From the NCBI RefSeq assembly GCF_045037415.1, contig NZ_CP173438.1: a stretch of DNA of 64,000 bases, one strand, 5' to 3'. The notes beneath the pieces were generated by a model that saw only the letters and a program-made list of their open reading frames with translations, had not been told where the DNA came from and made no database searches. A program made the position numbers and the translations under genes. The stretch is from Escherichia coli (GTDB taxonomy: Bacteria > Pseudomonadota > Gammaproteobacteria > Enterobacterales > Enterobacteriaceae). Below are positions 14,664 through 22,083 of this stretch, piece after piece; positions within the stretch are counted from its first letter, which is position 1, and the number at the start of each line of letters is the position of its first letter.

Positions 14664-15455
14664 ATGAAATCCACTCGTCCTGTTGCCGTGATTACCGGAG
14701 CCGCTCGTGGTATTGGAAAGGGCTGTGCGCTGGAGCTTGCGCGTGGCGGATTTAATCTGCTGATTAATGATCGTCCGGATGCGGATAGCGTAGAAAAATT
14801 ACATGCCACACAACAAGAATGTCTGGCGGAAGGCGTGGAAGTGATTTGCTTCCCTGCTGATGTGGGCGATCTCTCCCTGCATGAAGAGATGCTCGACGCA
14901 GCGCAAAACCAGTGGGGACGTCTGGACTGCCTGCTCAACAACGCAGGCATTTCAGTGAAAAAACGCGGTGACCTTCTCGACCTCGAACCAGACAGCTTCG
15001 ACCAAAATATTGCCATTAACACCCGCGCACCGTTCTTCCTTGCTCAGGCATTCAGTAAGCGCTTACTGGCACAGCCGAAACCGGAAGCAGAACTGCCGCA
15101 CCGCTCGATTATTTTTGTCAGTTCCATCAACGCCATCATGCTGGCGATGAATCGCGGCGAATATACCATTGCCAAAACTGCCGTCTCTGCCGCTGCTCGT
15201 CTGTTTGCTGCTCGCCTTTGTAATGAACAAATTGGCGTATATGAAGTGCGTCCTGGTCTCATCAAAACCGATATGACTATTCCGGCAACGGCCTATTACG
15301 ACGAACTGATTGCCAAAGGTCTGGTGCCGTGGGGACGTTGGGGTTATCCGGCGGATATTGCTTCCACTGTCCGCGCGATGGCGGAAGGTAAACTTATTTA
15401 CACCTGTGGTCAGGCGGTCGCCATCGACGGCGGCTTAAGTATGCCGCGCTTCTGA
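14664..15455 (+). CDS. Short-chain dehydrogenase/reductase (SDR, FabG-like)
   Basis: 263 aa with TGAARGIGKG cofactor motif, NNAG, and an S...YxxxK catalytic arrangement (YTIAK). Confidence 0.85.
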   Translation: MKSTRPVAVITGAARGIGKGCALELARGGFNLLINDRPDADSVEKLHATQQECLAEGVEVICFPADVGDLSLHEEMLDAAQNQWGRLDCLLNNAGISVKKRGDLLDLEPDSFDQNIAINTRAPFFLAQAFSKRLLAQPKPEAELPHRSIIFVSSINAIMLAMNRGEYTIAKTAVSAAARLFAARLCNEQIGVYEVRPGLIKTDMTIPATAYYDELIAKGLVPWGRWGYPADIASTVRAMAEGKLIYTCGQAVAIDGGLSMPRF

Positions 15456-15464
15456 GGCTGAATC

Positions 15465-16307
15465 ATGAGAGATCTGTTACAACGCCCGGATTTATTCAGT
15501 ATCAATACCGCGACACTGGGCTATAAAACGCCGCTACCCGCCATTATTGATGCCTGCGCCGCACGCGGTATTGGCGCGATTGCCCCCTGGCGCAGGGAGT
15601 TGCAGAGTGAAGATCTCCAGCAAACCGCCCGCCAGCTTGCTGCCAGTAACATGAACGTTTCCGGTTTGTGCCGTAGCACCTACTACACCGCACCGACGCT
15701 GGCGGAGCGCAAACTGGCGATTGACGATAACCGCCGGGCGCTGGACGACGCCGCTGTACTGAACGCCGCCTGTTATATGCAGGTGGTTGGCGGTCTGCCA
15801 ATGGGAACAAAAGATCTGTACGAAGCACGGGAACAGGTGAAACAAGGGATTCGCCAGTTGCTGCCACATTCGAAAGAGGTCGGCGTGCCAATTGCACTGG
15901 AGCCACTGCACCCGATGACTGCTGCCAATCGTTCTTGTCTGTGCACGTTACGTCAGGCGCTGGACTGGTGTGATGAACTCGATCCCGATGGCGAATTTGG
16001 CCTCGGCGTGGCGGTAGATGTCTACCATGTCTGGTGGGACCCGGATCTCGCCAGTCAGATCCTGCGTGCCGGAAAACGCATCCTCGCGTTTCATGTTTCC
16101 GACTGGTTAGTGCCGACCACCGATCTGGTCAATGACCGTGGAATGCCGGGAGATGGTGTCATCAATATTCCGTCAATTCGTCGGCTGGTTGAAAACGCCG
16201 GATTTAATGGCGCTATTGAACTGGAAATATTCTCACCGTACTGGTGGCAGAAAGATATTAACAGCACGCTGGATATTAGCGTCGATCGCATCGCGCATTA
16301 TTGTTAA
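15465..16307 (+). CDS. Sugar-phosphate isomerase/epimerase-family (xylose-isomerase-like TIM barrel) protein
   Basis: 280 aa; resembles the AP-endonuclease-2 / UlaE / hydroxypyruvate-isomerase-type TIM barrel; starts 10 nt after the SDR stop. Confidence 0.65.
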   Translation: MRDLLQRPDLFSINTATLGYKTPLPAIIDACAARGIGAIAPWRRELQSEDLQQTARQLAASNMNVSGLCRSTYYTAPTLAERKLAIDDNRRALDDAAVLNAACYMQVVGGLPMGTKDLYEAREQVKQGIRQLLPHSKEVGVPIALEPLHPMTAANRSCLCTLRQALDWCDELDPDGEFGLGVAVDVYHVWWDPDLASQILRAGKRILAFHVSDWLVPTTDLVNDRGMPGDGVINIPSIRRLVENAGFNGAIELEIFSPYWWQKDINSTLDISVDRIAHYC

Positions 16308-20713: not shown

Positions 20714-20805
20714 TTTCCAATATTTCCTCTGTACCTGATTTTTATTGCCTATTACATGGAAATACCAACAACCAGGGTTTATTAATATAATTAAAAGGTT
20801 TAAAA

Positions 20806-22083
20806 ATGAATAAAATAAAGAATTATCGATGGCATATGATTGCCCTCGTATGCTTTATCACTGTAATCAATTATCTGGACAGAACGGCGTTAGGTATTGC
20901 GGCTCCAACGATTATGGAGACAACCGGAATAACCAAAGAACAATATTCATGGATTGTCAGTGCATTCCAGTTGGCCTATACATTGGGGCAACCGATAATG
21001 GGCTTCTTTATTGATACCGTGGGTCTGAAGTTAAGTTTTGCGATATGTGCCGCAATCTGGGGCCTGGCGACAATGGGGCATGCCTTGACAGGAACATGGT
21101 CAGGTCTGGCATTTATGCGCGCCCTGATGGGTTTCAGCGAAGCATCGGCAATTCCTGCGGGTGTAAAAACCGCATCAACATGGTTCCCGGCAAAAGAGCG
21201 TGGCGTGGCGACAGGTGTTTTCAATATGGGCACCTCACTCGGCGCGATGCTTGCTCCACCGTTGATTGCCTGGTGCATTATGTTTCATAGCTGGCAATTT
21301 GCGTTTATTGTCTCAGGTAGCCTTGCTTTACTCGCGGCTTTATTTTGGTTCTTTTGTTATAAAGATCCAAAAGATGCTAAACGCCTTTCTGATGAAGAGC
21401 GCCACTATATTGAGTCTGGGCAAGAACAGCATCTTAAAACAGATAAGAAAGAAAAAACGTCAATCAAGCATATCCTCAGCCAACGTAATTTCTGGGGGAT
21501 TGGCATCGCGCGTTTTCTCGCTGACCCGGCATGGGGAACCATTAACTTCTGGGTACCGATTTTCTTCGTCGAAACGCTGCATTTTAGCCTGAAAGAAATT
21601 GCCATGTTCGTCTGGCTACCTTTCCTGCTGGGCGATCTCGGCTGTTTAGCCAGTGGTTTTGTCGCGAAGTTCTTCCACGATCGCGGCGTGAGTTTAATTA
21701 ACTCACGAAGAATTACCTTCACTATTGCAGCCGTCATTATGATGACGATTGGTCTGGTGAGTATTGTCGAAAATCCCTACATCGCCGTATTACTGATTAG
21801 CATTGGCGCATTCTCGCATCAATGTCTTTCTACTGTTGCAGCAACTCTGGGCGGTGACCTATTCAAAAAAGACGAAGTAGCTACCGCTGTGGGTATGGCA
21901 GGAGCCTGTGCATGGAGCGGTCAGTTGATTTTCAACCTGTTTATCGGGGCATTCGTTCACATTATCGGCTTCGCGCCGTTCTTTATTGCCCTGGCTTTCT
22001 TTGACATTATTGGCGCCATTGCGCTGTGGACGCTTATCAAAGTTAAAGACGAAGAACCACAAGTACAGTTAGCGACAAGCTAA
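20806..22083 (+). CDS. MFS transporter, anion:cation symporter (ACS) family-like (organic-acid or sugar-acid permease)
   Basis: 425 aa, about 12 TM; N-terminal DRTALGIAAP-type motif typical of ExuT/GudP/DgoT-like ACS permeases; AT-rich by eye. Confidence 0.8.
   Translation: MNKIKNYRWHMIALVCFITVINYLDRTALGIAAPTIMETTGITKEQYSWIVSAFQLAYTLGQPIMGFFIDTVGLKLSFAICAAIWGLATMGHALTGTWSGLAFMRALMGFSEASAIPAGVKTASTWFPAKERGVATGVFNMGTSLGAMLAPPLIAWCIMFHSWQFAFIVSGSLALLAALFWFFCYKDPKDAKRLSDEERHYIESGQEQHLKTDKKEKTSIKHILSQRNFWGIGIARFLADPAWGTINFWVPIFFVETLHFSLKEIAMFVWLPFLLGDLGCLASGFVAKFFHDRGVSLINSRRITFTIAAVIMMTIGLVSIVENPYIAVLLISIGAFSHQCLSTVAATLGGDLFKKDEVATAVGMAGACAWSGQLIFNLFIGAFVHIIGFAPFFIALAFFDIIGAIALWTLIKVKDEEPQVQLATS

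Follow-up and report, generated by a model that had tools for sequence, protein, structure and literature searches.

A packed operon with a divergent regulator

A 64,000-nucleotide stretch of Escherichia coli DNA (contig NZ_CP173438.1; hereafter the window) carries, between cycA-fklB-ytfB and rplI-rpsR-priB-rpsF, the seven-gene cluster that is the subject of this analysis: six co-directional enzyme and transporter genes and a divergent regulator. The regulator gene (13804..14451, minus strand) encodes a TetR/AcrR-family protein of 215 amino acids (aa), and PGAP calls the same open reading frame (ORF) as a coding sequence in strain 81009. The operon runs on the plus strand, starting with a classical short-chain dehydrogenase/reductase (SDR) oxidoreductase of 263 aa (14664..15455; NCBIfam PRK12745) and a xylose-isomerase-like TIM-barrel enzyme of 280 aa (15465..16307; PF01261). 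These are followed by a crotonase-family short-chain enoyl-CoA hydratase of 258 aa when started where PGAP places it (16317..17093; the ATG at 16311 is an alternative), a 513-aa single-chain CoA-transferase of family I, YdiF/Pct type (17103..18644; PF01144 and a match to structure 2ahu) and a soluble flavoprotein of 690 aa (18641..20713; PF00890) from the succinate dehydrogenase, fumarate reductase and L-aspartate oxidase superfamily. The last gene (20806..22083) encodes a 425-aa permease of the major facilitator superfamily (MFS), assigned to the anion:cation symporter (ACS) family, whose 314-bit match to TIGR00893 is below the cutoff. A plus-strand hairpin resembling an intrinsic terminator (22093..22129; 15-bp stem, 7-nt loop, T-run) closes the operon.

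Measured on the ORFs, the gaps along the six genes are 9, 3, 9, -4 and 92 nt, and the negative value reflects an ATGA overlap between the CoA-transferase stop and the flavoprotein start. A preliminary description of this DNA had recognized a packed six-gene operon with a divergent TetR gene and a strong terminator, and the ORFs and hairpin are as it described; its gaps of 10, 4 and 10 nt, an overlap and 92 nt agree with ours within counting convention. Two database proteins from E. coli, P0003 and P0030 (1078 and 1043 aa), join CoA-transferase and flavoprotein in one frame, as would be expected if a frameshift or sequencing error bridged the 4-nt overlap.

The intergenic region between regulator and operon contains two elements of regulatory appearance. 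One is a CRP-like site (TGTGA-N6-TCGCA, 14557..14572) that, judged by its consensus match alone, is a candidate CRP site; intergenic alignment shows that Klebsiella and Salmonella retain the pattern GTGA-N6-TCACA and that Brenneria has a perfect version of it (TGTGATGTTAATCACA). The other is an inverted repeat with an 8-bp stem (14574..14595; ATCAACCAAC-TAGA-TGGTTGAT, in full ATCAACCAACTAGATGGTTGAT), a candidate TetR operator. These two elements are the best-conserved intergenic blocks in both E. coli alleles described below, Klebsiella, Salmonella and Brenneria. The CRP-like half-site pair directly adjoins the 22-bp palindrome, and the remaining intergenic sequence has diverged between E. coli and Brenneria. 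TetR orthologues in Klebsiella oxytoca and Salmonella enterica carry PF00440 (TetR_N) and PF17938 (TetR_C_29), and against NCBIfam the regulator gives sub-threshold matches only. An N-terminal helix-turn-helix (HTH) domain together with a conserved palindrome in the divergent intergenic region is consistent with a TetR repressor and its operator, and the arrangement of sites would be that expected of a catabolite-controlled, repressor-gated carbon-source operon.

An old enterobacterial locus lost from K-12

Klebsiella oxytoca and Salmonella enterica have all seven genes at this ytfB/rplI site as well, with order and spacing retained at an operon DNA identity of only ~75-85%. Within E. coli, 3141 of 5426 complete genomes (~58%) contain the segment encoding crotonase and CoA-transferase. 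The genes are thus not juxtaposed by chance. K-12 MG1655 has in the operon's place yjfZ (DUF2686) and the 402-bp pseudogene ytfA (4427694-4428095, locus L089); since ytfA sits at the TetR position, it is the truncated remnant of the operon's TetR gene. Synteny across genera thus indicates an old enterobacterial locus lost from some lineages, not a recent island. A B2-specific island, which we also considered, is ruled out by this synteny and by presence in ~58% of complete E. coli genomes. E. coli metabolism is mostly viewed through K-12, which lost the operon, and over half of the complete genomes of the species, some of them from strains isolated from urine and other samples of human origin, retain it intact.

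On the rplI side of the operon lie a hipA-like gene with a frameshift and an HTH gene, which together span window positions 22226-23987 (minus strand), between operon and rplI. The HipA-family toxin gene is split into two minus-strand ORFs (22226-22987 and 22987-23493) and annotated as frameshifted in RefSeq, and next to it the HTH gene encodes a HipB-like protein of 163 aa. Klebsiella and Salmonella have an EamA transporter gene in place of this pair. Single E. coli strains carry an IS1 insertion in the MFS or crotonase gene (hits H21 and H30; OZ040331 and TUM2826), which points to occasional inactivation of the operon.

That the cluster is a chance juxtaposition or a decaying, non-functional remnant seems to us very improbable. 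Its absence from K-12 and ~42% of complete E. coli genomes, the adjoining frameshifted hipA-like gene and the IS1 insertions in a few strains would fit such decay. However, all six ORFs and the TetR gene are intact, catalytic motifs are present in the SDR, crotonase, CoA-transferase and flavoprotein, gene order and spacing have stayed constant over three genera at the divergence given above, and each exact protein sequence is found on at least 1000 contigs in the database.

Two E. coli alleles with different carboxylate transporters

The MFS gene is present in 1692 of the 5426 complete E. coli genomes, and in 1481 a cassette for a tripartite ATP-independent periplasmic (TRAP) transporter, DctQMP, replaces it (locus L009, 12103-14946). 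The two alleles are only ~90-94% identical along the shared enzymes, and this similarity falls away sharply within the final ~300 bp of the flavoprotein gene. When the Klebsiella and Salmonella operons are compared with the window, similarity is lost sooner, near 20100, and identity between the MFS proteins is only 51%. The 3' end of the operon is thus an exchangeable transporter cassette, and because the break falls inside the flavoprotein gene, the flavoprotein C-terminus travels with it.

Both transporters are carboxylate importers, in line with the earlier proposal that an anionic substrate is taken up. The names that sources have given to the exact operon proteins are all generic; one source calls the MFS protein an "ACS family hexuronate transporter-like" protein. 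The binding protein of the TRAP allele (L009, 13975-14946) scores best against structures 4ovr, 4x8r, 4n8y, 4n15, 4n91 and 4mhf, and for four of these (4x8r, 4n8y, 4n91 and 4mhf) the reported ligand is glucuronate or galacturonate (PMC7660916, PMC11668362). In the uronate-binding protein STM3169, the residues contacting glucuronate include Arg150, Arg170 and Asn210 (PMC7660916). The allele pair offers a direct experimental handle, since a ligand screen can be run on the binding protein of a TRAP system, which is soluble.

Enzyme families encoded in the operon

NCBIfam, Pfam and PDB sequence searches confirmed the family assignments. None of the operon proteins reaches the cutoff of an NCBIfam equivalog, the SDR model PRK12745 excepted. 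The SDR scores 420.6 bits against this model, above its cutoff, and the model's name, "3-ketoacyl-ACP reductase", carries no pathway information. The protein has the SDR motifs TGAARGIG at residue 11, NNAG at 92 and YTIAK at 167, and its closest structures, 4da9 and 4one, were deposited under generic SDR or 3-oxoacyl-ACP-reductase names.

The TIM-barrel enzyme matches PF01261 (E 8e-37) and is 49-50% identical to SMc04130 (3qc0/3ju2) and 41% identical to 7vpf. A structure model of the protein (pLDDT 87) superposes on 3qc0, 3ju2 and 7vpf with template modeling (TM) scores of 0.87-0.89. The deposited titles, "a sugar isomerase" for 3qc0, "protein SMc04130" for 3ju2 and "a novel putative sugar isomerase" for 7vpf, name no specific activity; 7vpf in particular was considered as a source of function and set aside on account of this noncommittal title. 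After these structures, the closest folds, all of them characterized, are IolI, tagatose 3-epimerase and other ketose 3-epimerases, QuiC1 in its 3-dehydroshikimate dehydratase domain, and YcjR; each of these enzymes enolizes its substrate at the position alpha to the carbonyl of a sugar or cyclitol. Residues E146, D185, H210 and E252 are invariant in the family, and this Glu/Asp/His/Glu pattern presumably forms a metal site. Similarity to the named TIM-barrel enzymes considered (IolO, Hyi, IolI, IolE and 3-dehydroshikimate dehydratase) stays below equivalog level, with NCBIfam scores of 27.9 bits for IolO (cutoff 300) and 26 bits for Hyi (cutoff 353) and a match to IolI at E 1.8e-5 and 18% identity.

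The two CoA enzymes are closer to known proteins. The crotonase scores 100-151 bits against NCBIfam crotonase models, every one below cutoff; its best structures are 3-hydroxypropionyl-CoA dehydratase (5zai) and a clostridial crotonase (5z7r), and it has both hydratase glutamates, E117 (GGGIE) and E137 (PEVMLG). The CoA-transferase aligns to YdiF (2ahu) over its full length (residues 8-508, E 8e-116) and contains an EQG motif whose E324 is at the position expected of the catalytic glutamate, from which we predict that it is the catalytic residue. Because the closest relatives are YdiF, 5zai and 5z7r, both enzymes look short-chain.

In the flavoprotein, PF00890 (FAD_binding_2) matches residues 43-475 only (E 1.2e-27), leaving residues 476-690 with no Pfam match, and the N-terminal GxGxxG motif is present as GSGAAG at residue 48, as befits the PF00890 superfamily. 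The protein does not group functionally with fumarate reductase or L-aspartate oxidase, scoring 125 bits against TfrA (cutoff 718) and 107 bits against NadB (cutoff 639). It shares with the succinate dehydrogenase (Sdh), fumarate reductase (Frd) and L-aspartate oxidase flavoproteins the PF00890 FAD domain, a C-terminal helical domain and a conserved arginine in an HG..R motif; it differs from them in that the histidine of QFHPT is not conserved, the capping domain does not align and an extra C-terminal region (476-690) is present. When the profile of its family is aligned to NadB, the FAD and C-terminal domains match and the capping domain, which bears much of the active site, does not. The family comprises 419 representative clusters at E<1e-30, with the invariant motifs GSDKQT, QHxNGG and HGVxRPGG, and the operon encodes no Fe-S partner subunit for the protein. 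It belongs to a distinct family, for which we found no characterized member in the searches made.

These assignments allow a reading in which the acid is first converted to a CoA thioester by the YdiF-type transferase. The flavoprotein would then serve as an acyl-CoA dehydrogenase equivalent or, in the reverse direction, an enoyl-CoA reductase; the crotonase would hydrate, the SDR would oxidize the 3-hydroxyacyl-CoA, and the TIM barrel would clear a side product. All four activities are encoded with their catalytic motifs intact, the CoA-transferase stop overlaps the flavoprotein start, the SDR fits a "3-ketoacyl reductase" model and, by analogy, a similar logic operates in the 3-oxopropionate-to-propionate branch of Anaerostipes discussed below. 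On the other side, the operon encodes no thiolase, and the PF00890 flavoprotein fold is not known to act on acyl-CoA substrates. The genomic surroundings of flavoprotein relatives bear further on this reading.

A core of SDR, TIM barrel and flavoprotein in distant relatives

We took 80 loci from a species-level genome collection and scored the neighbors of flavoprotein homologues by tblastn and ORF clustering. Among the 81 loci with a callable flavoprotein ORF, the SDR adjoins in 35, the TIM barrel in 17, TetR in 14, the crotonase in 7 and the CoA-transferase in 9 only. The full seven-gene set was limited, among the loci examined, to Escherichia, Klebsiella and Salmonella. Brenneria has TetR-SDR-TIM-flavoprotein (74%, 70% and 59% identity for the SDR, TIM barrel and flavoprotein) with a PcaK-like transporter, and gut metagenome or Succinatimonas-type loci have TetR-SDR-flavoprotein-TIM-TRAP, in both cases with no CoA genes. 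Pseudescherichia, Mangrovibacter and Phytobacter have TetR-SDR-GFO-TIM-MFS-flavoprotein, in which GFO stands for a Gfo/Idh/MocA dehydrogenase. The order TIM-GFO-SDR-flavoprotein, accompanied by TRAP or a Liv-type ATP-binding cassette (ABC) system, is found in Lentisphaeria, Opitutia, one betaproteobacterium and one planctomycete. In the Brenneria, Lentisphaeria and betaproteobacterial loci the flanking genes are mostly unrelated housekeeping genes. Across these loci the conserved core is SDR and flavoprotein, with or without the TIM barrel, together with a carboxylate transporter, and the CoA-transferase/hydratase pair is a recurrent add-on.

Neighbors of the flavoprotein relatives also bear on the substrate class: the relatives often adjoin Gfo/Idh/MocA dehydrogenases, KdgK-like kinases, Eda-like or FBA aldolases, and IlvD-type and DapA-type sugar-acid enzymes. 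Alphaproteobacteria have the order sugar ABC-GMC-GMC-(Dabb)-LacI-GFO (levoglucosan-dehydrogenase-like)-flavoprotein-KdgK-like kinase, and Planctomycetes and Phycisphaerae have an old yellow enzyme (OYE)-like gene followed by SDR, Eda-like, flavoprotein and a 2-keto-3-deoxygluconate (KDG)-kinase-like gene. These contexts hint at KDG-like or three-carbon-acid end products. On a Rhizobium sp. CCGE531 plasmid (L090; compare L024-L056), the well-conserved alphaproteobacterial order, with a flavoprotein of 55% identity, is preceded by crotonase and aldehyde dehydrogenase genes and followed by an aldolase gene. An Fe-S OYE-like domain adjoins, or is fused to, distant flavoprotein homologues in L066, L074, L077, L081, L085 and L088, and the metagenomic protein P0154 (1084 aa) is a natural fusion of such a domain to the flavoprotein; this suggests that the two flavoenzymes are paired in those organisms, whereas the E. 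coli operon has no such partner.

CoA metabolism reappears near the flavoprotein in a further set of loci, which favors activation to the thioester as the first step. L016 combines CoA-transferase, crotonase, TRAP, MaoC, acyl-CoA dehydrogenase (ACAD), electron transfer flavoprotein (ETF) alpha and beta, TIM barrel and flavoprotein; L073 combines SDRs, MaoC, CoA-transferase and ACADs with an IlvD-type sugar-acid dehydratase and a DapA/KdgD-like enzyme; and CoA enzymes likewise stand beside flavoprotein homologues in L038, L048 and L054. Yet the separate ACAD genes in L016 and L073, joined by ETF in L016, suggest that the flavoprotein is not the acyl-CoA dehydrogenase there. Moreover, the SDR, TIM barrel and flavoprotein are kept with no CoA enzymes in many lineages, including Brenneria, where SDR and TIM barrel are 70-74% identical to those in the window, as well as the Succinatimonas-type and Pseudescherichia/Phytobacter loci. 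The preliminary description had proposed just this order, CoA activation first and then a beta-oxidation-like sequence, and the relatives speak against it; we consider it unlikely, if still a serious alternative. Its view of the TIM barrel as atypical for a CoA pathway is not supported either, since in relatives the barrel stays with SDR and flavoprotein, which suggests that it belongs to the core.

The same neighborhoods raise the idea of a reductive dehydroxylation, or electron sink, for a ring-shaped acid with several hydroxyls (quinate or shikimate, for example, or a hydroaromatic acid akin to them), along the lines of the bile-acid bai operon: the SDR would make a ketone, the TIM barrel would eliminate a hydroxyl, the flavoprotein would reduce the enone or enoate so formed, and the deoxygenated acid would pass to the CoA enzymes. 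FRD-type flavoproteins commonly reduce alpha,beta-unsaturated carboxylates. The core occurs with a PcaK-type aromatic-acid transporter in Brenneria and with a Liv-type ABC system in L020, is carried by Succinatimonas-type loci of strictly anaerobic gut bacteria, and includes a TIM fold resembling 3-dehydroshikimate dehydratase and inosose isomerase; enoate-reductase-like Fe-S OYE domains are fused or adjacent to flavoprotein homologues (P0154, and OYE471 in several loci). Nevertheless, in none of the loci examined is the module next to genes known from quinate/shikimate metabolism or from the cleavage of aromatic rings, both transporters of E. coli come closest to hexuronate carriers, the CRP-like site suggests a carbon source over an electron acceptor, and no such pathway was found in the literature searched. 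This proposal therefore strikes us as rather improbable.

A proposed route for a hydroxylated carboxylate

Our preferred reading, to which we give an even chance of being correct, is that the operon serves the CRP-activated, TetR-repressed catabolism of an imported hydroxylated carboxylate resembling a hexuronate or sugar acid. Gene content, co-conservation, protein families, intact catalytic motifs, the two transporter alleles and the conserved promoter elements are direct results; what kind of substrate is consumed, in which sequence the reactions run and what each enzyme contributes are inferred. Of the substrate classes named at the outset, a hydroxy- or keto-carboxylic acid or a sugar acid, this is the range favored by the comparative evidence, and a sugar acid in particular draws support from the matches of the TRAP binding protein, the hexuronate-like name of the MFS permease and the sugar-acid enzymes found beside flavoprotein relatives.

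The acid would enter through the permease, an ACS-type MFS protein here and a TRAP system in the other E. coli allele. In a first stage the SDR/TIM/flavoprotein core would work on the free acid: the SDR would turn a secondary alcohol into a ketone, whose carbonyl the TIM barrel would use for enolization chemistry, whether isomerization, epimerization or beta-elimination; and the flavoprotein, which is FRD/NadB-like, would make or remove a C=C bond, or oxidize C2, next to the carboxylate or carbonyl. Both the action on the free acid and the place of the TIM barrel in the core are suggested by the persistence of the three proteins together, with no CoA enzymes, in relatives. In a second stage the short acid product, possibly of a 3-oxo-, 3-hydroxy- or enoyl-type, would be activated by the CoA-transferase and hydrated or dehydrated by the crotonase, and the final steps would be left to housekeeping enzymes.

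Several observations weigh against this route. No C-C cleaving enzyme (aldolase, thiolase or lyase) is encoded in the operon, and the ATGA coupling of CoA-transferase and flavoprotein fits a flavoprotein acting on a CoA ester equally well. CoA-transferase/hydratase or ACAD/ETF/MaoC genes recur by the flavoprotein in unrelated lineages (L016, L038, L048, L054 and L073), and the PcaK-like transporter of Brenneria and the Liv-type ABC system of L020 point to hydroaromatic or aromatic acids. Finally, the ~240 bits of the TRAP binding protein against uronate binders is a family-level similarity, drawn from overall similarity alone.

A broader and more tentative proposal, which we think somewhat doubtful, is that SDR, TIM barrel and FRD/NadB-like flavoprotein form an undescribed triad that takes hexuronate-like or hydroaromatic acids through oxidation, elimination and then ene-reduction or desaturation, and to which a CoA stage has been joined in E. 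coli, Klebsiella and Salmonella. The triad ranges from Enterobacteriaceae to Planctomycetota, Verrucomicrobiota and Lentisphaerota; if the proposal is true, it would mean a new catalytic role for a large flavoprotein family and a new sugar-acid route lost by K-12. More generally, identifying the substrate would add a nutrient niche for E. coli, Klebsiella and Salmonella and would give a function to the 690-aa FRD/NadB-like flavoprotein family and to the SMc04130-type TIM barrel, for which three structures have been solved.

Comparison with known systems

The literature searched contains no description of this operon, and papers on ytfA give only the presence or absence of the regulator. The initial impression that the cluster matches no named E. 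coli pathway was thus sustained, the uninformative PRK12745 being the one NCBIfam equivalog above cutoff. Compared with beta-oxidation-type operons (fad, ydiF-ydiO, paa), the cluster has a hydratase with two glutamates but no ACAD, its sole flavoprotein belonging to PF00890, and no thiolase ORF is found from TetR to the terminator. The hexuronate (Ashwell) route resembles it in transporter types, ExuT or TRAP uronate transporters (STM3169; PMC7660916), and differs entirely in its enzymes; no homologues of UxaC, UxuA/B or UxaA/B from uxa/uxu catabolism were detected by NCBIfam among the operon proteins.

Two pathways that pass through CoA intermediates offer partial parallels. In the deoxyribonate pathway of Klebsiella michiganensis, a sugar acid is catabolized via acyl-CoA intermediates with MFS acid transporters and a beta-hydroxyacyl-CoA dehydrogenase (PMC6365646). 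The resemblance lies in enterobacterial sugar-acid catabolism through CoA thioesters with MFS transport. As an identity for the present operon this pathway is ruled out: it uses a CoA synthetase, thiolase, lactonase and glycerate kinase, is encoded at another locus and has no flavoprotein, TIM barrel or crotonase (PMC6365646). During inositol fermentation, Anaerostipes rhamnosivorans converts 3-oxopropionate to propionate with the OxcT CoA-transferase, the EcdH hydratase and the AcaD dehydrogenase (PMC8355322). As in the window, a YdiF/Pct-type CoA-transferase, a hydratase and a dehydrogenase share one operon; they process a short acid derived from a sugar-like or cyclitol precursor, with a flavoenzyme at the enoyl step, as may also happen here. 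However, the Anaerostipes flavoenzyme is of the ACAD/ETF type and not PF00890, and the upstream iolG/E/D/B/C/J genes have no counterpart here; the likeness is one of analogy.

The core itself resembles E. coli ycjM-W (YcjS/YcjR/YcjQ), IolG/IolE/IolI and the levoglucosan enzymes LgdA/LgdB, modules whose logic is oxidation, epimerization or elimination by a TIM barrel, and then reduction. In each, a dehydrogenase works together with a TIM barrel of the xylose-isomerase-like kind that acts alpha to the new carbonyl; many relatives of the cluster also add a Gfo/Idh/MocA dehydrogenase. The TIM barrels, however, are only 15-20% identical, the NCBIfam equivalogs score far below cutoff, those modules have no FRD/NadB-type flavoprotein or CoA enzymes, and the window has no GFO gene. 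Built on two families for which no characterized member was found, the cluster is an uncharacterized form of a familiar arrangement, the regulated acid-catabolic operon.

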